Below are positions 4,209 through 32,890 of a DNA stretch of 53,368 nt, one piece after another. The DNA is from an uncultured Erysipelotrichaceae bacterium (lineage in GTDB: Bacteria > Bacillota_I > Bacilli_A > RF39 > UBA660). Position 1 is the first letter of the stretch. Every line of letters starts with the position of its first letter. Below the pieces are notes generated by a model. It did no database searches. It was not told the origin of the DNA and was given only the letters and a program-made list of their open reading frames with translations. The DNA is taken from positions 1 to 53,368 of the forward strand of contig CACZQK010000067.1 of assembly GCA_902783315.1 (NCBI GenBank). Reading direction: 5' to 3'. The position numbers and the translations under genes are program-made.

Positions 4209-5163
4209 AATTATCCCTCTCTTCTTCTCTTATATATCGTTCAAGCTCTAAATCCAAATCCTTTATAACTAGCATTGCATCTTCCAAATTCTTTGTTCTA
4301 ACTCCAGAAGCATATTTGTGACCACCACCACAATGCTTTTCAGCAATATGATTAATTTGAGGACCACGAGATCGAATAGAAATACGATACTGATTATTTT
4401 TAATATCCTCTGTTATTGTTACCCAAACAAGAACCTCTTTTATATAATTAAAGTTATTAATCATATTTCCAGCAGAAGCACTATCTACCCCAAATTGATT
4501 AATAATATTATCTGAAATAATAACATATCCAAGTCCAAAACTTGTAACTTTCATATTTAAAGAAATATACCCTTCTAATCTAACCTCACTCATTGGTCTC
4601 ATATATAATTTTTCGTAAATTACACTAAAATCAAAAGGATATTGTCTTAAAAAATCCGAAACAAGTTTAAAAGTTTGAAAATTACAACTGTTAAATAAAA
4701 AACGATTAGAATCCGACACCAAACCCATATATAATAATTCAGCAATAGAACTATTACATTGCAATTCAGTTTGTGAAATCACTTTCATTATAATCTCACA
4801 AGTAGAAGTTGTATCTTCTTCTATAATTTCTAAATCACAAATTCTTTCAATAAAAGGATGATGATCAATTTTAATAGAGAAAGCATAATCACTTGGACTT
4901 GCAGAATCAATTCTTCGTAAATCAGGAGTATCACAAACAATCAATAAAGCATTATCAACTTTTTTTAATTTATCCAATTTTCCAAATGAATGAAATCTAG
5001 AACTCCCTGTACCAATCGCCAAGACCAGTTTATCCGGATATGTCAATTGAATAGAATCCCTCAAAGCCAATTGACTACATAAGGCATCGGGATCAACACC
5101 AATATGTCTTGCAACAACAATTGTGTCAAATTTTTTTATTTTTTCTATTAATTCACTATACAT
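4198..5163 (-). CDS. nrnA: DHH/DHHA1 phosphoesterase (NrnA-type oligoribonuclease / pAp phosphatase)
   Basis: 321 aa with DHH-family motifs (ARHIGVDPDALCS, IKIDHHP) and a DHHA1 GGGH motif (HCGGGHKYASG). Confidence 0.85.
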   Translation of the reverse strand: MYSELIEKIKKFDTIVVARHIGVDPDALCSQLALRDSIQLTYPDKLVLAIGTGSSRFHSFGKLDKLKKVDNALLIVCDTPDLRRIDSASPSDYAFSIKIDHHPFIERICDLEIIEEDTTSTCEIIMKVISQTELQCNSSIAELLYMGLVSDSNRFLFNSCNFQTFKLVSDFLRQYPFDFSVIYEKLYMRPMSEVRLEGYISLNMKVTSFGLGYVIISDNIINQFGVDSASAGNMINNFNYIKEVLVWVTITEDIKNNQYRISIRSRGPQINHIAEKHCGGGHKYASGVRTKNLEDAMLVIKDLDLELERYIREEERDNYDN

Positions 5164-5174
5164 TTATCATTTTC

Positions 5175-6359
5175 CTATCCATTTAGCACTTTCCAAGTAT
5201 CCCTAGCAATTAACAAATCCTCTTTTGCAGGAATTACATAAACCAGTACAGAAGAATCCGCGGCACTGATTTTTATAGCTTTATGACAAGTATTATTCGC
5301 ATCTAAATCAATTTTTACTCCCAATGAACAAAGTTTTTCACAAATTTCACGACGCAAAGAGACTTGCTTTTCACCTATCTCACCTGTAAAAGAAATAATA
5401 TCAACGCCCCCTAACAAAACATAATATTGAGCAATGTAATCAACAATTTGACGTACATACTTATCTTTTGCTAAACTAGCATTCCTATTCCCCTCCTCAG
5501 ACAAAGACATGATGGCATCAATATCATTGGTAATCTCACTCATTCCTAACAAGCCACCATCATAATTCAAATCATCCAACACTTCTGATGCATTTTTACC
5601 CTCTTTTTCCATTATATATGGAATAATAGAGGGATCAATATCGCCACAACTTGTACCCATCATAGTACCAGAATATAAAGAAAAGCCCATAGAAGTATCA
5701 ACACATTTACAATTCTTGATAGCACTAATACTAACATCTTCGCTTCCTAAATAACAGCTAATCAAATTAAAATTATCCCTATTAAATAAATTCTTAACAT
5801 AATTAGTAATATATTGATGAGTTATGCCATAAAAACCATATTTACGGATTCCATAATCAAGATACCAACGACGAGGAACAGCATATAAAAATGCACTTTC
5901 ATCCATAAATTCATAAAAGGCCGTATCAAAAACACCAACTATAGGTATTCCAAAAAAAACATTTTGAAAAGCCTTTATTCCAGTAATATTATCTTGCATA
6001 AAGCTTGGAACAATATCCAAAAAGTCCTCCAATTGCTGAATATCAGCTTCGTTTAAAAGTGTGCTCTTGTAAAAGCAATCCTTCCCATGAAAAACAAAAT
6101 AGCCAATACCTTTAATATCTTCCATAGAAGATATAATTTCTAAAGAAAGAAGTTTATCCAACAAAACTTTAGCAACCTCAACACAATCAGTAAGAACAAT
6201 TTCCTCTCTAATTTTTTCACCGTTATAAACAATTGTGTAATAGCTATTTGGCATACCTATTCTTTCAAAAGTACCACTAGCTATAACAAATTCAGTTCCA
6301 ATATCAAACAATGTAAATACTAAAGATTTATTACTATATTTAACAGAAATAACCTTCAC
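5175..6359 (-). CDS. acetate/propionate kinase-family paralogue with degenerate active site (probable pseudoenzyme)
   Basis: 394 aa, alignable along its full length with the AckA at 7443-8642. Motif changes are VNAGSSSLKF->VKYSNKSLVF, GHRVLHGG->GYFVFHGK, LHHPGN->SFMQDN, GFHGTSH->GFYGITH and MGTRCG->MGTSCG. DTAF is retained. Confidence 0.8.
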   Translation of the reverse strand: MKVISVKYSNKSLVFTLFDIGTEFVIASGTFERIGMPNSYYTIVYNGEKIREEIVLTDCVEVAKVLLDKLLSLEIISSMEDIKGIGYFVFHGKDCFYKSTLLNEADIQQLEDFLDIVPSFMQDNITGIKAFQNVFFGIPIVGVFDTAFYEFMDESAFLYAVPRRWYLDYGIRKYGFYGITHQYITNYVKNLFNRDNFNLISCYLGSEDVSISAIKNCKCVDTSMGFSLYSGTMMGTSCGDIDPSIIPYIMEKEGKNASEVLDDLNYDGGLLGMSEITNDIDAIMSLSEEGNRNASLAKDKYVRQIVDYIAQYYVLLGGVDIISFTGEIGEKQVSLRREICEKLCSLGVKIDLDANNTCHKAIKISAADSSVLVYVIPAKEDLLIARDTWKVLNG

Positions 6360-6433
6360 AAAAATCTCTCCTTCTGAGAATTTACTATCATTATTATACT
6401 ATAAAGAGCAATGAAAAAAAAGTCTATTTAAAA

Positions 6434-7312
6434 CTAACATATTTTAAAGCCACAAGAAGTACAATAGTTACAACCATCAACATTATTTCCACAATTTGAA
6501 CAAAAGTGAACACCTTTTTTAGCAGAAATGGCATCTTTCTGTGAACTTTCATTCACTATCATATTTAAATTTTCTTCTTCAATATCATTATATAAAAATC
6601 GTTGTTCATCAGAAACTTCATCAACTATTTTAAAAGAAGTTATAAACATAAGCGATAAAAATATCAAAAATAAGAAAAGAAAAGAAAAAATACCTGTTGC
6701 AGCAAAATGTAAAATAACAGTATTATAAAACGTATGCAAAACAGTAGGAATGATAAAACTTAAAATCATATATTTTCTACATTTATTTTCTTCTTTACTA
6801 ATCTCACTCATCTTAGCTTTAGAAAAGTAATAACCCATAACAACTCCAAAACAAGTATGACCTGGAACCGAAGTAAACGCCCTTAATAAAGCATTACCCA
6901 AGCCATTTGAAAAAACATATAAAATATTTTCAACACAAGCAAAACCTAAAGATGCAAAAACAGAATAAACAATAATATCATATATCTCATCAAATTCTTT
7001 TATATCATAACCAAGCTTTTTAGTAACAATCCATTTAAATCCCTCTTCGATAAAAGCAACAGAAATAAAAATATTAATAAATAATAACCAAAAATTTTCT
7101 AACACTGTATCAAGAGAATAATACTTTTGAATAAAAACTTCCAAAAAAATAATTGGAATAGTTGTTATACAACCACACACAAATATCCTCAAAAGAGTCT
7201 TGCTAGGCTCAGGATTTACATCCTTTTTATAAATATAATAACATAAGGCTAAAACTGGTAAAACTGCAGCTAAAAAACATAATATCCAAAAAAGCAAATT
7301 CAAATTAAACAC
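6434..7312 (-). CDS. PrsW-family intramembrane protease with C-terminal zinc-ribbon
   Basis: Polytopic membrane protein with the EEGFKW and HTCFG motifs typical of PrsW. The C-terminus is FCSNCGNNVDGCNYCTSCGFKIC (two CxxC pairs). Confidence 0.7.
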   Translation of the reverse strand: MFNLNLLFWILCFLAAVLPVLALCYYIYKKDVNPEPSKTLLRIFVCGCITTIPIIFLEVFIQKYYSLDTVLENFWLLFINIFISVAFIEEGFKWIVTKKLGYDIKEFDEIYDIIVYSVFASLGFACVENILYVFSNGLGNALLRAFTSVPGHTCFGVVMGYYFSKAKMSEISKEENKCRKYMILSFIIPTVLHTFYNTVILHFAATGIFSFLFLFLIFLSLMFITSFKIVDEVSDEQRFLYNDIEEENLNMIVNESSQKDAISAKKGVHFCSNCGNNVDGCNYCTSCGFKIC

Positions 7313-7380
7313 CTACCATAAAATAACTAAATAGTTTATAGAAAAGAATATATAAAAGCTTTCCTATATAATTATAGCAC

Positions 7381-7405
7381 AAAAAAAGAGATATTTCTCT
7401 TTTCT
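7381..7405 (-). terminator. rho-independent terminator downstream of ackA
   Basis: Minus strand reads AGAGAAATATCTCT followed by TTTTTTT. Confidence 0.5.
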
Positions 7406-7442
7406 CTTATAATAAAATTATTACAGAAGGTTATTAACATCT

Positions 7443-8642
7443 CTATCCTTCCATAATAATATTATACGCATCTTTAACAATCATCAACTCTTCATTAGTA
7501 GGCACAACCCATACCGGAATTTTAGAATCAGTAGAACTAATAATACCCTCTTGCTTATCCTTGTAACTTGCAATTGAAGAATTCTCTTTTTGATCTATTT
7601 TAATTCCTAAAGGAGTTAATTTATTAAGAATAGATTCTCTGACTTCTATTCCATTCTCACCAACACCAGCAGTAAAGACAATAGCATCTACCTTTCCTTC
7701 AAGTTCTATATAATATTGTGCAATATAATTTGCTACTCGATTGTTATACATATTAAGGGCCAAAATAGCTCTCTCATCCCCACTAGCAGCAGCGTTTTCA
7801 ACATCACGACAATCACTAAAACCAGCAACGCCCAAAAGACCACTTTTCTTATTTAAAGCACTTGTAATATCTGAAATATTTTCACCAGACTCTTTACATA
7901 CATATTCCAAAATAGATGAATCAATTGCTCCACAACGTGTACCCATCATTAAACCATCAAGAGGGGTAATTCCCATTGTCGTATCAAAACACCTACCATT
8001 TTTAATAGCACTAATGCTTGCACCACTACCAATATGGCAAATGATTAGGTTAACATCATCTTTAGCCACCCTTTTCTTCATAACACCTGTAATATACTTG
8101 TGACTTGTTCCATGAAAGCCATATTTACGAACTCCATACTTTAAGTACCATTCATAAGGAACAGGATAAATATAATTTTCCTTAGGCATTGTTTGATGAA
8201 AAGCTGTATCATATACAGCAACCATAGGTACCTTAGGCAAAACTGCTCTCAAAGCCTCAATTCCTGCTAAATTGCCAGGATGATGAAGAGGTCCAAGCTT
8301 AGTTAAATCCTTAATATCTTGAATAACCTCATCTGTAATTAATACTGAATCATTGTATTTTTCACCACCATGTAGAACCCTATGGCCAACTCCTTTAATT
8401 TCATCAAGAGAATTAACAACTTTATTTTCCAATAATTCATTAAATAATACTTCAACAGCTTCATGATGATTTTTTAAATACTTTTCACCCTTAATCTTTT
8501 GTCCATTGACTTTAGTATTCCAAAAACTATCTTCCATTCCTATTTTTTCAATATAACCACTAATAAGAACCGTTTCTTTAGGCATTTCAAATAATTGAAA
8601 TTTTAAAGAACTACTACCTGCATTCACACATAAAAACTTCAT
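7443..8642 (-). CDS. ackA: acetate kinase
   Basis: 399 aa with all canonical motifs present: VNAGSSSLKF, GHRVLHGG, PLHHPGN, DTAFH, GFHGTSH, HIGSGASI, MGTRCG and PTNEE. Confidence 0.93.
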   Translation of the reverse strand: MKFLCVNAGSSSLKFQLFEMPKETVLISGYIEKIGMEDSFWNTKVNGQKIKGEKYLKNHHEAVEVLFNELLENKVVNSLDEIKGVGHRVLHGGEKYNDSVLITDEVIQDIKDLTKLGPLHHPGNLAGIEALRAVLPKVPMVAVYDTAFHQTMPKENYIYPVPYEWYLKYGVRKYGFHGTSHKYITGVMKKRVAKDDVNLIICHIGSGASISAIKNGRCFDTTMGITPLDGLMMGTRCGAIDSSILEYVCKESGENISDITSALNKKSGLLGVAGFSDCRDVENAAASGDERAILALNMYNNRVANYIAQYYIELEGKVDAIVFTAGVGENGIEVRESILNKLTPLGIKIDQKENSSIASYKDKQEGIISSTDSKIPVWVVPTNEELMIVKDAYNIIMEG

Positions 8643-14879: not shown

Positions 14880-16106
14880 CTAGTTGTAAACTCCTATAAA
14901 ATATTTTTTCTTACCACGACGAATAACAACATACTTTTTATCAATACATTTATCTTTAGTAAGAACATATTCTAAATCTATAATTCTTTCCCCATTCAAA
15001 GTAATAGAACCATTATTAACAAACTCACGTGCTTCTCGTTTACTAGAACAAATATTACCATCTACTAATAAATCTACAATATTTAAATTGCGTGATATTT
15101 TAAATGGAGTAAGTCCTTTAAAAGCTATTTCAATATCTTTACTATTAAATGTGCTAATATTTCCACTAAATAAACTTTCACTAATTTTAATAGCTTCTAA
15201 ATAACTATCTTCTCCATGTAAATCTGTAATAATTTCACGTGCTAAAGCTTTATGAGCAATACGTCTTTCAGGACAAGCCAAATTATCTTTTTCAATTTTT
15301 TCTATTTCTTCACGACTTAAAAAAGTTAATTTTTTTAGATAATCAATAATCATAGAATCATCAAGATTAATTAAATATTGATATAATTCATAAGAAGATG
15401 TCTTATTCTCGTCTAACCATAAAGCATTTCCTTCCGTTTTTCCAAATTTCTTACCAGAAGCATCGACAACTAAGGGCATAACCATTCCATAAACTTCTTT
15501 ATCTAACTTTTTTCTAATTAATTCAATCCCTGATGTAATATTGCCCCATTGATCACTTCCTGCCACTTGCAATTCACAATCATATTTTTTATACAAATAA
15601 TAAAAATCCATTGCTTGCAATAACATATAAGAAAATTCAGCAAAAGTAATTCCAACATCCATCCTAGACTTTACATGATCTTTAGCAAGCATATAATTTA
15701 CATTAAAATACTTACCATAATCTCTTAAAAAATCACAAATATTAATATCTTTAGTCCAATCCCAGTTATTAACAACTTCAAATCCAAATATTTTCTTTGC
15801 TTGAGCTGTTAATCCTTTAATATTCTTTTCAACTTCTTCTTTACTAATAATAGGTCTTTCAGACGTAGGTTTTGGATCACCAATTAACCCAGTTGCCCCA
15901 CCAACAAGCAAAATAGGATGGTGCCCAGCCTTAGCTAATCTCTTAGAAATTAAAAAAGAAGAATAATGTCCAATATGCATAGAATCAGCAGTAGGATCAG
16001 TTCCTATATAAAACGTCATTCCACCTTTATTTAATTTTTCAATCAATTCTGGAGAACTAATTTCTTGTATAAGTCCTCTCCATTCTAAATCTTCAAATAA
16101 TGTCAT
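14880..16106 (-). CDS. tyrS: tyrosine--tRNA ligase
   Basis: 408 aa with a HIGH-type motif (SMHIGH), KFGKT (KMSKS-type) and a C-terminal S4-like domain. Start overlaps the upstream CYTH gene by 4 nt. Confidence 0.95.
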   Translation of the reverse strand: MTLFEDLEWRGLIQEISSPELIEKLNKGGMTFYIGTDPTADSMHIGHYSSFLISKRLAKAGHHPILLVGGATGLIGDPKPTSERPIISKEEVEKNIKGLTAQAKKIFGFEVVNNWDWTKDINICDFLRDYGKYFNVNYMLAKDHVKSRMDVGITFAEFSYMLLQAMDFYYLYKKYDCELQVAGSDQWGNITSGIELIRKKLDKEVYGMVMPLVVDASGKKFGKTEGNALWLDENKTSSYELYQYLINLDDSMIIDYLKKLTFLSREEIEKIEKDNLACPERRIAHKALAREIITDLHGEDSYLEAIKISESLFSGNISTFNSKDIEIAFKGLTPFKISRNLNIVDLLVDGNICSSKREAREFVNNGSITLNGERIIDLEYVLTKDKCIDKKYVVIRRGKKKYFIGVYN

Positions 16107-16648
16107 TTTCTTTCCTCCTCTAATTTTAGCATTCTAATTTCATCTAAATTATACCCATAATCAGCATAAATCTTATTAATATCCTTTGTAGTATAATCTT
16201 TCTTAGCAAAACCCAACTCTGCTAGCACCTTATAAACAGCAGCTTCCGTCCTTCCCTCAATTTCTAAATATGTAGGTATCATTGGCCAATAATCAATATC
16301 TAACTCAACATCTTTTAAAACATATTGAATGCGCCTATTTTCTTGATAACTTCGTGCCTCATATCCCAATTCATTTAACATCAAATTGCATTTCTCAAAA
16401 TTGTCAACTTCTACCTCTAGCTCTTGAGTCCCATCTATTTCTGAAGAAACTAAATTTTTAATAGTTAAAGTAGTTTTCTTCCCATTTGTACGTAAACGAA
16501 TCCACTTGCCATCAACTTTAGGAATAAAATCATATACATATCTTCTTTGTAGGCAATCCCATTCCTTATGTGCATTCAACTTTTCTAATTTATCAATCAA
16601 TTCTAAAACGTTTACATTCAAAACTCGAACTTCATATTCTGTATGCAT
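16103..16648 (-). CDS. CYTH-domain protein (triphosphate tunnel metalloenzyme family)
   Basis: 181 aa with an N-terminal EYEVRV (ExExK-like) motif and alternating charged beta-strands typical of CYTH/class IV adenylate cyclase-like proteins. Confidence 0.75.
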   Translation of the reverse strand: MHTEYEVRVLNVNVLELIDKLEKLNAHKEWDCLQRRYVYDFIPKVDGKWIRLRTNGKKTTLTIKNLVSSEIDGTQELEVEVDNFEKCNLMLNELGYEARSYQENRRIQYVLKDVELDIDYWPMIPTYLEIEGRTEAAVYKVLAELGFAKKDYTTKDINKIYADYGYNLDEIRMLKLEEERK

Positions 16649-16661
16649 AAAATACCTCCAA

Positions 16662-16868
16662 CAAAAAACCGCATTTCCAACCCAATAAGGACGAAAACCG
16701 CGGTACCACCTTAATTCATGTAAAACATGCTCTCTTTAACCTTAACGCGGACAAACGATTTTTTTCAAAGTATGTAATTCATAAAATATCTTCTCTGTCT
16801 TCCACCAACCAACAGCTCTCTATTTAATAACAATATTTTACTACTATGTACTCATCAACAAAAAATAT
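16662..16868 (-). promoter_or_regulatory. T-box leader, tyrosine specifier (UAC)
   Basis: Minus strand has an AGAGAG box, a specifier loop GAAUUACAU (UAC at 16774-16776, followed by A) and the T-box sequence AAUUAAGGUGGUACCGCGG (about 16694-16712). A terminator hairpin with a U6 run follows. A TTGACT-17-TAGTAT promoter lies at 16875-16903. Confidence 0.85.
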
Positions 16869-29523: not shown

Positions 29524-32331
29524 TTATTTTACAACAATATTAACAATTTTACCTTTAATAATAATTATTTTAACAATTTCATGCCCCTCAATATGTTTTA
29601 AAACATTATCACATTCCATTGCCTTATCTTTAATTATTTGTTCATCATCATCGATAGAAATAGTAATTGTTCCACGTACTTTACCATTAACTTGAACTGC
29701 AATTTCTTTTGTATGTTCTACTATCTTTTCTTCATCATACTTAGGCCATTCACTTTCACAAATTGGTTTATAACCTATTGCTTCATTTAATTCTTCCGTA
29801 ATATGAGGAGCCATTGGATTTAATAAAACTAGCAACAAATGATAATCATCTTTAGTAATTGATTCTAAATCATCATAAGCATTTACTAAAATCATTAAAC
29901 TAGAAATAGCTGTATTGTATCCCATATGTGTGATATCATATTCTATCTTCATAATGGTTTTATTTTGTAAAACTTCTAAAGATTCCGTAAAACCTTTTTT
30001 ATCATTCAATTTATCTTTTAAACGAATTACTTTATCTAAAAATCTACGACATCCTCGTAAAGAATCAGTACTCCAAGGAGCATCCATCTGATAGTCACCC
30101 ATAAACATCTCATAGATTCTTAATGTATCAGCACCATATTCATGAATAATATCATCTGGATTAATAACATTACCTTTAGACTTACTCATTTTCTGATTAT
30201 CACTACCAAGAACCATACCATGACTAACTCTAGTCCAAATCATTTCTTTAGAAGGAACTAAACCAATATTATATAAAAATTGCACCCAAAATCTTGCATA
30301 TAACAAATGTCTTGCGGTATGTTCCATACCACCATTATACCAATCAACACGATTCCAATATTTCATTTTATCCATTGAAGCAAATTCCTTATCATTATGC
30401 GCATCCATAAAACGTAAAAAATACCAAGAAGATCCTGCCCAGTTAGGCATTGTATCTGTTTCTCTTTTTGCAGCACCTCCGCATTTTGGACACTTACAAT
30501 TTACCCAATCAGTAATATTTGCAAGAGGACTTTCACCATCTTCTGTTGGTTCATATTCAGCAACATCTGGAAGCAGTAATGGTAAATCCTCTTCATTCAT
30601 AGGTACCCAACCACATTTTGGGCAATTAATCATTGGAATTGGCTCTCCCCAAAATCTTTGCCTTGAAAAAACCCAATCTCTCATCCTATAATTAATTTTC
30701 TTTTTTCCACAATGATTATCTTCTAAAAATTGAATCATTTTATTAATAGCTTCTTCTTTATTCATACCATTAAGAAATCCAGAATTAATATGAATACCAT
30801 CTCCTACCATTGCACCAGGATTCATGGCATATTCATAAGTTCTATGATGTAAAGCATCTTTAACTTCATCAATTTGCTTTTTAGATACCCATTCTACATC
30901 AAATATTTCATCATCATCCAAACGTTGATCCCTACGCTTATCAGACTTTAACTTAAAATAAAAACCCGTAGACTCAGTATTATAATACTTACCCTTAGAA
31001 AATGCATAATAATGGTGAAAGATCTTTGGTAATTCACTAACAAATTCTAAATCATAATAACCAGTCTCTTCTTCTATTTCTCTTTTTGCACACTCTAGCG
31101 GATCTTCTCCATCATGAATAGTACCGCCAATAAAACATCTGCCACCTTTATCATGCCAGTTAAGCGTCAAAAATTTATCTTCTTTTTCATCGTAAACAAC
31201 AGCTACGATAGAAGTCTTATTTAACTCATTTTCATGAGGTTCACCAGAAACCTCTTCCAATACTTGAACAATTGGAATATTATATTTAATCGCAAACTCA
31301 TAATCTCTTTGATCATGTGCAGGAACTGCCATAATAGCACCAGTACCATAAGTAGCTAAAACATAATCACTAATATATATTGGAATCTTTTCCTTATTAA
31401 CAGGATTTATAGCATAAGCTCCCGTAAATACTCCCGTCTTATCTTTATTAAGCTCCGTACGTTCCATGTCGTTCTTAAAAGAACACTCTTTTTGATATGC
31501 TTCTACTTCTTTTTTATGCTCTTCTGTTGTGATTTCACTAACATAAGGATGTTCAGGAGCTAATACACAATAAGTGACACCATAAAGTGTATCACACCTC
31601 GTTGTAAATACTGTAAATTTCTTATCATGACCTTCTATTTTAAAATCGATATGTGCACCCTCAGATTTACCAATCCAATTGATCTGACCAAGTTTTACTC
31701 TCTCAGCAAAATTAGTCTCATCAAGTCCTTTTAATAAATCTTCTGCATAATCACTCATACGAAGCATCCATTGACTTTTTTCTTTCTGTTCTACTTGAGA
31801 ACCACATCTTTCACAAACTCCTCCTGCAGCATCCTCATTACTAAGAACACTCTTACATGTTGGACACCAATTGACAGGAATCGTATCTTTATAAGCCATG
31901 CCATGCTTATAAAATTGTAAAAACTGCCATTGTGTCCACTTATAATAATCGGAATCAGTAGTTGAAAATTCCCTACTCCAATCAAAAGAAAATCCTAATG
32001 ACTTCATTTGTTTTTTAAATGTTTTTATATTCTCCTTAACAGCCTCCTTAGGATGTATATGATTTTTTATAGCATATTGTTCAGCAGGCGCCCCAAAAGC
32101 ATCCCATCCCATAGGATATAGAACATTATACCCTTGTAATCTCATCATACGAGCCATAGCATCCTGAGCAGTATAACTCCTAACATGTCCAACATGTAAT
32201 CCAGAACCACTTGGATATGGAAACTCAACTAAAATATAATAAGGTTTCTTCTTATTATTTTCCTTTACTTCAAAAGTATGATGCTTATCCCAATAATTCT
32301 GCCACTTTTCCTCAATATTTCTATAATTCAT
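29524..32331 (-). CDS. leuS: leucine--tRNA ligase with an inserted Nudix hydrolase domain
   Basis: 935 aa with HVGH (HIGH motif), KMSKSKGN, the CP1 editing domain (TTRCDTLYG...AVPAHDQRDYEFA) and zinc-knuckle cysteines. Residues ~362-507 are an extra domain with a perfect Nudix box, G403-x5-E-x7-REIEEETGY. Confidence 0.93.
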   Translation of the reverse strand: MNYRNIEEKWQNYWDKHHTFEVKENNKKKPYYILVEFPYPSGSGLHVGHVRSYTAQDAMARMMRLQGYNVLYPMGWDAFGAPAEQYAIKNHIHPKEAVKENIKTFKKQMKSLGFSFDWSREFSTTDSDYYKWTQWQFLQFYKHGMAYKDTIPVNWCPTCKSVLSNEDAAGGVCERCGSQVEQKEKSQWMLRMSDYAEDLLKGLDETNFAERVKLGQINWIGKSEGAHIDFKIEGHDKKFTVFTTRCDTLYGVTYCVLAPEHPYVSEITTEEHKKEVEAYQKECSFKNDMERTELNKDKTGVFTGAYAINPVNKEKIPIYISDYVLATYGTGAIMAVPAHDQRDYEFAIKYNIPIVQVLEEVSGEPHENELNKTSIVAVVYDEKEDKFLTLNWHDKGGRCFIGGTIHDGEDPLECAKREIEEETGYYDLEFVSELPKIFHHYYAFSKGKYYNTESTGFYFKLKSDKRRDQRLDDDEIFDVEWVSKKQIDEVKDALHHRTYEYAMNPGAMVGDGIHINSGFLNGMNKEEAINKMIQFLEDNHCGKKKINYRMRDWVFSRQRFWGEPIPMINCPKCGWVPMNEEDLPLLLPDVAEYEPTEDGESPLANITDWVNCKCPKCGGAAKRETDTMPNWAGSSWYFLRFMDAHNDKEFASMDKMKYWNRVDWYNGGMEHTARHLLYARFWVQFLYNIGLVPSKEMIWTRVSHGMVLGSDNQKMSKSKGNVINPDDIIHEYGADTLRIYEMFMGDYQMDAPWSTDSLRGCRRFLDKVIRLKDKLNDKKGFTESLEVLQNKTIMKIEYDITHMGYNTAISSLMILVNAYDDLESITKDDYHLLLVLLNPMAPHITEELNEAIGYKPICESEWPKYDEEKIVEHTKEIAVQVNGKVRGTITISIDDDEQIIKDKAMECDNVLKHIEGHEIVKIIIIKGKIVNIVVK

Positions 32332-32677
32332 TTTTAATCATTCCTTTCTTTTTATAAAATAAATACACCAAATGATAACTTAGCAATATAGTAACAAATG
32401 TCAATAAAAACCCACCAATAATTTCTAAGAAAAAATTTGAAAGATTCATAACCACAGTAACAATTAATGCAATATCAAAAGAGGAGACTAATGCAATAAG
32501 TTGCAAAAGTTGATTGTATTTTATATTATCGACATCTAAATGATACTTATAAATCAAATAAGTGACCTCAATAGGCTGTCGACTCTTTTTTTTCTTTTTT
32601 GCCCTTCTAATAACAAATATTTGATATAAAACAAAAACAAAAATAAAACTCAATAAAAACAAAAATAATTCTTCCAT
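32321..32677 (-). CDS. small 3-TM membrane protein, function unknown, first gene of the leuS transcript
   Basis: 118 aa. Its stop overlaps the leuS start by 11 nt. It lies directly downstream of the Leu T-box terminator. Confidence 0.55.
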   Translation of the reverse strand: MEELFLFLLSFIFVFVLYQIFVIRRAKKKKKSRQPIEVTYLIYKYHLDVDNIKYNQLLQLIALVSSFDIALIVTVVMNLSNFFLEIIGGFLLTFVTILLSYHLVYLFYKKKGMIKNEL

Positions 32678-32688
32678 ATATTCCTTTC

Positions 32689-32890
32689 AAAAAAAAACGT
32701 CCCATCATAAGGACGAATTATTCGCGGTACCACCTTAATTTGTAATAATATTACACTCTTATTATTGATAAAGGAATTACCCTTTTTGCTCTAAAGATAA
32801 GTTCATAAAATACTCATATCTGTTTTCACCGACCACAGACTCTCTACAAAAAGTAAAATTTATTACTACTTCTCCATCAACACAAAACAT
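32689..32890 (-). promoter_or_regulatory. T-box leader, leucine specifier (CUU)
   Basis: Minus strand has a GUAGAGAG box, a specifier loop GAACUUAUC (CUU at 32799-32801, followed by A) and the T-box AAAUUAAGGUGGUACCGCGA. The terminator is CGUCC-UUAUGAUG-GGACG plus U9. An extended -10 (TGtTATAAT) lies at 32897-32905. Confidence 0.85.

Follow-up and report, generated by a model that had tools for sequence, protein, structure and literature searches.

The leuS locus and its embedded Nudix domain

The window (the whole 53,368-nt stretch of DNA analysed here) carries on its minus strand, to which all features below belong, a leuS-Nudix open reading frame of 935 aa (29524..32331) encoding a bacterial-type leucyl-tRNA synthetase (LeuRS) with an embedded Nudix domain. 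The operon is headed by a T-box leader (32706..32889; 109 bits with Rfam model RF00230, whose gathering score is 93) whose specifier reads leucine, either as CUU or as the overlapping UUA, immediately 3' of GAA. Between the T-box and leuS the list of reading frames contains a hydrophobic ORF of 118 aa (32321..32677), the end of which overlaps the start of leuS by 11 nt. This ORF had no Pfam match and is syntenic in relatives, with the same layout in two of the loci retrieved (L001 and L084).

The encoded protein scored 956 bits against the NCBIfam equivalog TIGR00396 (leuS_bact; curated cut-off 548), and Pfam detected tRNA-synt_1, tRNA-synt_1_2, NUDIX and Anticodon_1 within it. The HIGH motif (HVGH, aa 46-49; 32185..32196), the KMSKS motif (aa 714-718; 30178..30192), the editing-site motif GTGAIMAVPAHD (aa 329-340; 31312..31347) and the T-rich editing motif TTRCDT (aa 243-248; 31588-31605) were each invariant in 38 relatives. 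At the CP1 editing site the T-rich motif, the GTG loop and the conserved Asp were all present and invariant, and both cysteine clusters associated with zinc were found. The initial annotation had described a continuous frame of 935 aa with intact HIGH, KMSKS, editing and zinc-cysteine motifs and an insert at aa 362-507 (30811-31248), and all of these were located in the ORF. The synthetase part retains all the motifs that activation, transfer and editing require. With a leucine T-box upstream and a dN/dS of 0.04-0.11 across the LeuS body, the gene most probably encodes the organism's housekeeping leucyl-tRNA synthetase under leucine T-box control, a mode of regulation shared with Firmicutes LeuRS.

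Canonical LeuRS structures (E. coli 4AQ7/4ARC, T. thermophilus 2BTE) have the same fold, HIGH and KMSKS motifs, zinc modules, CP1 motifs and C-terminal tRNA-binding domain. An AF2 model of the full-length protein, of moderate confidence only (pLDDT 76, pTM 0.59), matched T. thermophilus and E. coli LeuRS with TM scores of 0.75-0.80. The difference lies in CP1, where the canonical enzymes have a hairpin loop of ~23 aa and the window protein has a Nudix domain of ~150 aa. Among the 50 best matches listed, no solved LeuRS explains the Nudix domain, and the aligned chains are 762-876 residues long compared with 935.

Alignment to the syntenic canonical LeuS of L001 (806 aa) delimited the inserted segment (aa 362-507; 30811..31248), with the ~23-aa hairpin loop of the canonical protein expanded to ~152 aa. 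The segment had been placed between the end of CP1 and the synthetase body, a position that needs correction. The CP1 editing domain (aa 218-545; 30697..31680), as defined by PF13603 and the alignment to canonical LeuS, extends on both sides of the insert: aa 218-370 correspond to profile positions 2-152 of 185, a second stretch of PF13603 follows the insert, and the post-insert segment (GDGIHINS and a helix, aa 508-545) aligns to a part of canonical LeuS that lies within PF13603. Since the profile covers canonical LeuS in one piece (positions 2-184) and is split here, the Nudix domain is nested within CP1, inside its hairpin loop. The secondary structure of the AF2 model likewise puts the insert between strands 358-362 and 512-514. 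Its GC content resembles that of the rest of leuS.

The Nudix fold domain (aa 373-491; 30859..31215) matched Pfam PF00293 with 61.3 bits (E 1.3e-16), and the excised insert alone with 66.3 bits (E 3.7e-18), against a gathering cut-off of 21.1 bits. Excision also gave a confident AF2 model (pLDDT 90.6), for which Foldseek returned 486 PDB matches at E<=1e-3; the 50 best listed were all Nudix enzymes with TM scores up to 0.80, including 2azw, RppH and the Aquifex Ap4A hydrolase (TM 0.68-0.80). The proposal that the insert is a genuine Nudix domain is borne out by these results.

The Nudix box GTIHDGEDPLECAKREIEEETGY (aa 403-425; 31057..31125) fits GX5EX7REUXEEXGU, in the arrangement G403-TIHDG-E409-DPLECAK-R417E418I-E-E421E422-T-G424-Y425. 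Across 67 sequences G403, E409, R417, E418, E421, E422 and G424 were 100% conserved. The box had been described as free of any deviating position; it does fit the consensus, but Tyr425 at the last 'U' is its sole soft point, and this tyrosine is kept in 66 of the 67 relatives. Further family motifs are G-x-P-H-x-N-E before strand 1, W392, GGR, DDE-F-x-x-EW and a fully conserved HHYY (aa 439-442; 31006..31017) in the X-loop, 14-17 residues past the box. Column conservation of the insert (0.79) is equal to that of the LeuS core (0.78-0.82), and its dN/dS is 0.05-0.2. The Nudix domain thus seems complete, with metal-binding and catalytic glutamates, and apparently active.

Distribution and exchange of the Nudix cassette

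Searching with the full-length protein showed that all 120 of the 120 best clusters carry PF00293. Matches came from 191 species genomes (gut Bacilli/RF39-like MAGs), and ~70 of the 80 loci fetched have a fused ORF of 935-943 aa. Moreover, of the representatives at 50% identity that carry this type of Nudix domain, 96 among the best 150 are LeuS or LeuS fragments. In other LeuRS the insertion falls before CP1, after CP1a or in the catalytic body (at least three sites), with one to three Nudix copies per protein. Judging from these comparisons, the architecture is not a one-off but is clade-wide and part of a wider Nudix-LeuRS association, with purifying selection evidently acting on both the LeuS body and the Nudix domain in about 190 species.

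Outside LeuRS, this Nudix type was found once inside an IleRS (P0167), accompanied by a His_Phos_1 domain, and once inside an RNase PH. Stand-alone relatives, which have SHYY at the place of HHYY, lie directly upstream of leuS, ~1 kb downstream of leuS or upstream of valS, and in candidate-phyla-radiation (CPR) bacteria they adjoin genes for NDK and an RNase J-like protein, sometimes with CYTH. The domain represents a Nudix family of its own, for which LeuRS is the main partner in genomes, either fused at several sites or adjacent.

In four rabbit-gut MAG species (L001, L040, L053 and L084) a canonical LeuS is preceded by the module as an ORF of its own. In the pairs L001-L040 and L001-L053, the two for which values were calculated, dN/dS of the detached module was 0.26 in the Nudix part and 0.5-0.9 in the CP1 remnants, suggesting that only the Nudix part is still under purifying selection. 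Fixation in ~190 species, recurrent insertion and survival as a neighbouring gene together argue for a real functional link between the two activities.

The cassette also moves between divergent leuS genes by recombination. In L003 it shares ~90% DNA identity with the window over aa 331-510, whereas the rest of leuS is only 50-70% identical, and in L075 a second copy of the window type has been acquired beside a divergent resident copy. Such transfer illustrates how a single domain can be exchanged horizontally inside an essential gene.

The LeuS-Nudix architecture had been thought undescribed, and this holds for the literature searched, where we found no paper describing it; a 2017 review of the Nudix clan names neither tRNA nor synthetase (PMC5389931). 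LeuS-Nudix proteins are already present in public databases under generic names (the PGAP name of one relative, P0075, is just 'class I tRNA ligase family protein'), and NCBIfam has no curated model for LeuRS-Nudix. Extra catalytic domains are rare in bacterial aminoacyl-tRNA synthetases, and it is unusual for an essential enzyme to have a second, predicted active site nested in its editing domain. A parallel in NCBIfam is IleRS with a GNAT domain (NF040702), likewise a class Ia synthetase with an extra small-molecule-modifying domain; there, however, the addition is terminal and the host is IleRS, whereas here it is a nested Nudix domain and the host is LeuRS.

Candidate substrates

The nearest characterised PDB sequences to a profile of the LeuS inserts were Dcp2 from yeast and human (the best), CT771 and lupin Ap4A hydrolase. 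A profile of the stand-alone family placed lupin Ap4A hydrolase (1F3Y) at the top (E 1e-9), followed by CT771 and the Aquifex Ap4A hydrolase. The best NCBIfam neighbour was RppH, both for the insert and for 15 of 16 stand-alone relatives, yet the insert reached only 32.8 bits against NF001936 (cut-off 118) and 26 against the YtkD model TIGR02705 (cut-off 154), and none of the substrate-specific curated families in NCBIfam reached its cut-off. Ap4A hydrolases, RppH, Dcp2, NudB and ADP-ribose pyrophosphatases were all neighbours of the domain at comparable scores. In structure, RppH matched the Nudix model with TM 0.65-0.68 and rmsd ~4 A, and other small Nudix enzymes were at least as close.

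The best structural match (TM 0.77/0.80) was E. faecalis 2AZW, a MutT/nudix family protein that was also the second-best match of the stand-alone family profile, including the N-terminal FG motif and an aromatic X-loop. It is a free-standing protein from structural genomics, whereas the window domain is nested, and because its entry title names only a protein family it is no help in assigning a substrate. The Ap4A hydrolases (lupin 1F3Y, Aquifex 3I7U and Chlamydia CT771) and RppH/NudH, the closest characterised neighbours in sequence and in structure, likewise have a minimal Nudix fold of ~150 aa with a full box and an X-loop tyrosine. They share just 16-23% identity with the window domain, whose scores lie below every curated family cut-off, and are free-standing, whereas the window domain is nested in an enzyme, acidic and marked by its own family motifs. 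A tyrosine in the X-loop ~17 residues past the Nudix box is a signature of ApnA hydrolases (PMC5389931). In the insert Tyr441 and Tyr442 are invariant at +16 and +17 from the box, at the position of this residue.

Taken together, these relationships lead us to propose, with about even confidence, that LeuRS with a Nudix domain of ~140 aa in a CP1 hairpin at the surface is a bifunctional enzyme hydrolysing a nucleoside-polyphosphate-X compound near LeuRS. Hydrolysis of dinucleoside polyphosphates, or of a related nucleotide, is the most likely function suggested by the comparisons, with RNA-end pyrophosphohydrolysis as a close rival. According to this model the Nudix domain would act close to the working site of LeuRS, the likeliest substrates being dinucleoside polyphosphates (Ap4A, Ap3A) or p4A. 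Synthetases form these compounds by reaction of aminoacyl-AMP with ATP, ADP or triphosphate, and a hydrolase tethered to the producer could clear such by-products locally. A role in Ap4A hydrolysis is plausible given the tyrosine pair and the closest characterised enzymes (the Ap4A hydrolases of lupin and Aquifex, and CT771), and the acidity of the domain (pI 4.9, net charge -12) favours a small molecule over an extended RNA as the putative substrate. LeuRS is not known to be a particularly strong producer of Ap4A, and the Ap4A model leaves the strong preference for LeuRS over other synthetases unexplained.

While the same chemistry could, as in E. coli RppH, strip 5'-polyphosphate or Np4 caps from RNA, whether this is the main activity is a separate proposal. 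The domain might be an RppH/Dcp2-like pyrophosphohydrolase, tethered to LeuRS, that removes 5'-triphosphate or diphosphate or NAD/Np4A-type caps, acting either on the general RNA pool, with LeuRS a mere carrier, or on RNAs bound to LeuRS or CP1, for example precursors of tRNA-Leu. We regard this as possible, although tentative. The RppH and Dcp2 matches described above fit RNA-end hydrolysis about as well as Ap4A hydrolysis; RNA-bound E. coli RppH is among the top structural matches (TM 0.68), and the decapping effector AvrM14 is a further neighbour. The CPR gene order Nudix-NDK-(x)-RNase J-like, once with a CYTH (triphosphatase-type) gene in front, would suit RNA 5'-end processing at least as well, and RNase PH, which acts at the 3' end of tRNA, harbours one relative. 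However, all scores are far under the RppH cut-offs, and so acidic a domain (net charge -12) would be atypical for RNA binding. Since the 5' end of mature tRNAs is a monophosphate, tRNA-Leu has no evident group for the enzyme to act on. Ap4A and Ap5A are also cleaved by RppH (PDB 7sp3, one of the structural matches, is RppH with Ap4A), and likeness to RppH therefore cannot separate the two proposals.

A bolder and more doubtful version is that the LeuRS-linked Nudix domain, occasionally associated with IleRS, ValRS or RNase PH, belongs to an undescribed system of RNA-end surveillance or repair at the synthetase-held acceptor end of tRNA. It might free the 5' or 3' terminus of a nucleotide-linked cap or of a blocking pyrophosphate, as a second, chemically different proofreading step within CP1, and the cassette encoding it would be exchanged among gut bacteria and CPR lineages.

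The two substrate classes differ in their consequences. If the substrate is an Ap4A-type nucleotide, the fusion would be direct genomic evidence that cells clear synthetase by-products at source, bearing on the long debate over Ap4A as alarmone or damage product. If it is an RNA end, the fusion would point to a new kind of tRNA/RNA quality control. The LeuS-Nudix protein offers a ready-made, easily expressed test case.

Less probable explanations

Repair restricted to the tRNA 3' end appears improbable. Here CP1 would dock the CCA end so that the Nudix domain could clear a pyrophosphate or nucleotide-linked adduct from A76 and leave a chargeable tRNA, for example after 3'-pyrophosphorylation by toxic small alarmone synthetases. 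The hosts do bind the tRNA acceptor end (CP1 of LeuRS, an IleRS and RNase PH; ValRS is encoded next to some stand-alone relatives), and there are Nudix enzymes that cleave the 3'-diphosphate of ppGpp, a comparable reaction in support of this idea. The histidine phosphatase paired with the domain in IleRS could take off the phosphate that remains once pyrophosphate has been cleaved, but the same pair occurs in mycobacterial MutT1 (5GG8), a nucleotide-pool enzyme that acts also on Ap4A. MutT1 is a structural neighbour of the insert (TM 0.67) and shares the pairing of Nudix with His_Phos_1 seen in P0167; it is a free two-domain protein, whereas the window protein is without a phosphatase domain. 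One study describes MutT1 as acting on 8-oxo-GTP (PMC11784022). The repair scheme is moreover purely inferential, and homology to tRNA-repair enzymes already known was not found. Damage of this kind would affect every tRNA, leaving the preference for LeuRS unexplained, and since the CP1 remnant decays in stand-alone versions (dN/dS 0.5-0.9), docking through CP1 is not required.

It is similarly improbable that the Nudix fold is a non-catalytic module, a ligand sensor or structural spacer modulating CP1 movement or LeuRS regulation. LeuRS with several copies often include one that lacks the box (the middle copy of P0130/P0131, and P0142, P0149, P0151 and P0168), so such copies are tolerated and may only bind, and non-enzymatic members of the Nudix clan exist (PMC5389931). 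Nevertheless, the catalytic box residues show no substitution in the 67 sequences of the window's clade, in nearly all full-length LeuRS variants one copy or more retains an intact box, and purifying selection on the Nudix part persists after its detachment from LeuRS.

Even less likely is a selfish or neutral passenger, harmless but not useful, that propagates from one leuS gene to another by homologous recombination in the conserved CP1 flanks. The exchanges in L003 and L075 and the several insertion sites and copies are as such an element would predict. Against it stand the strong purifying selection on catalytic residues, the match in GC content to the rest of the gene, and the retention of the Nudix part alone as a separate gene where the CP1 of LeuRS was replaced. 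The Pfam search found no Hint/intein, homing-endonuclease or transposase features in the insert, whose sole other match was a sub-threshold hit to SAICAR_synt (E 0.085). An intein was rejected, in agreement with the initial annotation, because matches across the LeuS ORF were limited to tRNA-synthetase families, NUDIX and weak sub-threshold families, none of them intein-related.

Finally, a chimeric assembly or a decaying gene, the latter also dismissed in the initial annotation, is refuted: proteins identical to that of the window come from several independent NCBI and ENA contigs, and identical or nearly identical ones from many, the continuous fused ORF recurs in more than 120 clusters and about 190 species, and all motifs are intact, with invariant catalytic residues and dN/dS far under 1 (0.05-0.2 in the insert). 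The one sequence pointing the other way is a related LeuS-Nudix/ClpB chimera (P0005), probably misassembled, that lies 563 nt from the end of its contig.

The insert and its place in leucyl-tRNA synthetase

The leuS-Nudix gene (29524-32331, minus strand) encodes a 935-aa protein that scores 956 bits against the NCBIfam equivalog for bacterial LeuRS (cut-off 548) and contains the class I catalytic, LeuRS editing, anticodon-binding and NUDIX domains of Pfam. The NUDIX match spans aa 373-491 (E 1.3e-16; E 3.7e-18 for the excised insert alone) and includes a Nudix box, GTIHDGEDPLECAKREIEEETGY, at aa 403-425 (31057-31125, minus strand). The motifs HIGH (aa 46-49) and KMSKS (aa 714-718) are present, together with the T-rich and GTG...AHD editing motifs and both cysteine clusters, and all of these are invariant in 38 relatives. 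The initial annotation had described the insert (aa 362-507, 30811-31248) and the intact motifs correctly; its placement of the insert after the end of the CP1 editing domain was wrong. In the window protein the editing-domain profile (185 positions) is matched up to position 152 ahead of the insert, and alignment to a canonical 806-aa LeuS with an unbroken match to the profile locates the remainder at aa 508-545, 3′ of the insert. Because the profile is split in this way, the Nudix domain must be nested within CP1, where it stands in place of a hairpin loop of ~23 aa in the same alignment. A full-length AlphaFold model of modest confidence puts the insert between strands 358-362 and 512-514.

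Upstream of leuS-Nudix lies a T-box leader (32706-32889; 109 bits) whose specifier loop carries CUU right after GAA, with UUA overlapping; both are leucine codons. The gene is real and probably encodes the housekeeping LeuRS. Between the T-box and leuS, an ORF for a hydrophobic protein of 118 aa (32321-32677, minus strand) runs 11 nt into the start of leuS; a Pfam search with this protein gave no match, and the ORF keeps its position in the relatives at loci L001 and L084. No further Nudix gene was found in a search across the window.

Spread, selection and mobility among gut Bacilli

Full-length protein searching recovered proteins identical to the window's LeuS-Nudix on several independent contigs, and PF00293 was present in all of the best 120 clusters (90% identity level; 74-100% identity to the window). 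Genomes were also scanned, one per species, and 191 of them encode the window-type Nudix. An uninterrupted LeuS-Nudix ORF of 935-943 aa is present in ~70 of the 80 loci examined among these, with most of the others cut by contig ends. The host MAGs come from uncultured gut and rumen bacteria and bear the labels Bacilli, Tenericutes or Erysipelotrichaceae; Clostridium sp. CAG:433 and Ca. Onthocola are among them, and GTDB places family CAG-433 within order RF39 (PMC8035907). Thus LeuS plus Nudix, an architecture whose spread had been left to domain searches, occurs in ~190 species and in further lineages. A word-index search using the insert and its flanks had returned seven matches, but the rarity this implied was rejected, as the full-length, genome and exhaustive representative searches all show the architecture to be common.

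The many independent contigs, the >120 clusters, the intact motifs and the low dN/dS lead us to reject both a pseudogene and an assembly artefact, the latter having been named initially as a possible source of the fusion. An intein or mobile-element insertion is likewise rejected, since no such domains were detected with Pfam and the GC content of the insert is about that of the remaining gene. The initial view that this is neither pseudogene nor intein therefore holds.

Among 67 full-length sequences, mean column conservation of the insert (0.79) is comparable with that of the catalytic core (0.78-0.82). The invariant positions comprise Nudix-box residues G403, E409, R417, E418, E421, E422 and G424, and also family-specific ones: K372, SIVA374-377, W392, GGR396-398, HHYY439-442, D474-E475, E480-W481, H495 and Y501. 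Pairwise dN/dS is 0.05-0.2 for the insert and 0.04-0.11 for the rest of LeuS. Taken together, these sequence comparisons establish a predicted bifunctional architecture in which selection upholds both active sites.

The insert has also moved between leuS genes. The gene at L003 (4918-7746) is a mosaic: its LeuRS body, with 40-55% protein identity to the window, is of a different type, without the zinc cysteines and with HAGH for HVGH and KMGKR for KMSKS, whereas codons 331-510 (the CP1 end and Nudix) share ~90% DNA identity with the window. Such a stretch within a divergent body indicates cassette transfer, with recombination via the conserved CP1 flanks. At L075 (4390-7716), in a mouse-gut MAG, the CP1 of a 1108-aa LeuS holds a pair of Nudix domains: the resident copy, which is divergent, precedes GDGVHINS, and a second, window-type copy comes just after it.

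Moreover, in four species known from rabbit-gut MAGs the module is a separate ORF of 276-302 aa, made up of the remains of a decayed CP1, the Nudix domain and the helix that follows the insert (module plus LeuS: L001, 6001-9268; L040, 5650-8990; L053, 5704-8990; L084, 5001-8290). It occupies the same place, 3′ of the small membrane ORF, with a canonical 806-aa LeuS directly next. The catalytic halves of this LeuS each share 88% identity with the window enzyme, but its CP1 shares just 52% and 33%, so the CP1 has been swapped. When L001 was compared with L040 and with L053, purifying selection was evident on the Nudix part only of the detached ORF (dN/dS 0.26, against 0.5-0.9 for the CP1 remnant and tail), a contrast indicating that the putative Nudix activity is selected in its own right. 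The detached domain is kept in the leuS operon, and an active CP1 around it appears to be dispensable.

The Nudix family beyond the gut Bacilli

When 1.84 billion representative proteins were searched exhaustively with a profile, 749 matched, 136 of them with E<=1e-10. LeuRS or LeuRS fragments account for 96 of the 150 best of these matches, as confirmed with Pfam on samples. Insertion after CP1a, the site used in the window, is found in 20 of 28 full-length LeuRS cases. Elsewhere the Nudix domain lies ahead of CP1 (P0259), on both sides of it (P0142, P0146) or within the catalytic body (P0168, P0198), and it may be present in tandem (P0151, P0251) or in three copies (P0130, P0131). Most LeuRS-inserted copies keep the full Nudix box, while extra copies often lack it. 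The family is also found with a histidine-phosphatase domain in a 1345-aa IleRS (P0167) and inside a 519-aa RNase PH (P0185; a cluster of 6 member sequences).

Stand-alone relatives are proteins of 150-190 aa with the motifs FG-x-PH (at the N-terminus), SHYY and LEEDE-F-x-x-W, some carrying CPR labels. At L086 (711-3462) one of 154 aa (P0141) is encoded between tsaD, upstream, and the gene for a short 760-aa ValRS, with a gap of 5 nt to this downstream valS. At one locus paired Nudix genes lie immediately 5′ of a canonical leuS, and at another a stand-alone Nudix gene is ~1 kb 3′ of leuS. On Paceibacterota-type contigs the order Nudix-NDK-(x)-RNase J-like is kept, and a CYTH gene is present once. 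Taken together, these cases show a recurrent link between this Nudix family and LeuRS.

Several further arrangements were observed. Four neighbourhoods (L082, L087, L088 and L091, about 5001-8300 in each) read DUF8128/TrwB-like ATPase, Nudix, NDK, (DUF2238 or HD) and RNase J-like beta-CASP nuclease, and lie near the IF3-L35-L20 operon. P0183 is a GNAT-Nudix-GNAT-peptidase M17 protein with a Nudix domain of the same family. In P0005 (L093, 564-1526) LeuS CP1 and half of the Nudix domain are joined to a ClpB C-terminal domain; its start is 563 nt from the contig end, and the protein probably arose through misassembly or deletion.

Candidate substrates of the Nudix domain

The excised domain was modelled alone with a pLDDT of 90.6, and its best structural matches are Nudix proteins, contrary to the possibility, raised initially, of a LeuS-specific segment without that fold. 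The top match is an E. faecalis Nudix protein (2azw; TM 0.77/0.80), whose entry title gives only the family name. Aquifex Ap4A hydrolase (TM 0.71/0.81) and E. coli RppH (TM 0.68, RNA and Ap4A complexes included) also align, and ADP-ribose pyrophosphatases align more poorly (TM ~0.5). The sequence profile of the insert is nearest to the Dcp2 Nudix domain, Chlamydia CT771 and lupin Ap4A hydrolase, while that of the stand-alone relatives finds lupin Ap4A hydrolase first (E 1e-9), then 2azw, CT771 and Aquifex Ap4A hydrolase. No curated subfamily claims the domain: every NCBIfam Nudix equivalog is far under its cut-off, including the best match, RppH. The invariant Tyr441/Tyr442 lie 16-17 residues past the Nudix box, in the 'X-loop', where a tyrosine correlates with diadenosine polyphosphate activity in Nudix enzymes (PMC5389931). 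The domain is acidic clade-wide (pI 4.9, net charge -12). Its structural and profile neighbours, X-loop tyrosines and acidity thus assign it to the Ap4A-hydrolase/RppH/Dcp2 part of the superfamily, and, as judged from sequence and model, lean slightly towards a small-molecule NpnN substrate.

We propose that the domain would hydrolyse a nucleoside-polyphosphate compound close to LeuRS. Synthetases form dinucleoside polyphosphates and p4A from aminoacyl-AMP. This chemistry, the tyrosine signature, the acidic surface and the similarity to Ap4A hydrolases lead us to favour these compounds as the substrate, with about an even chance of being right; the preference of the family for LeuRS is a feature that this reading leaves unexplained. 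Alternatively, the domain could act on RNA 5′ ends, by pyrophosphohydrolysis or decapping. The similarity to RppH and Dcp2, the RNase J and CYTH neighbourhoods of the stand-alone relatives and the RNase PH fusion argue for this activity, which we nevertheless consider rather unlikely. Repair of tRNA 3′ ends and a non-catalytic role are both improbable, and carriage of the domain as a neutral passenger is the least probable of all.

LeuRS and Nudix are both well-known families. The initial annotation was not aware of a described LeuS-Nudix protein, and indeed no description of the architecture was found in a full-text literature search or in a 2017 review of the Nudix clan (PMC5389931); database entries carry generic names only. 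The architecture is robust, widespread and tractable by experiment.

A related arrangement was noted elsewhere in the window (14880-16867, minus strand), where a second T-box (16684-16867; likely specifier UAC (Tyr), one base past GAA) is followed by an ORF for a 181-aa CYTH (triphosphate-tunnel) protein (16103-16648) whose end overlaps tyrS (14880-16106). A second synthetase in this genome therefore appears to be co-transcribed with a polyphosphate-type hydrolase. At L087 and at the P0313 locus, too, a CYTH gene is found close to a stand-alone relative of the LeuS Nudix.
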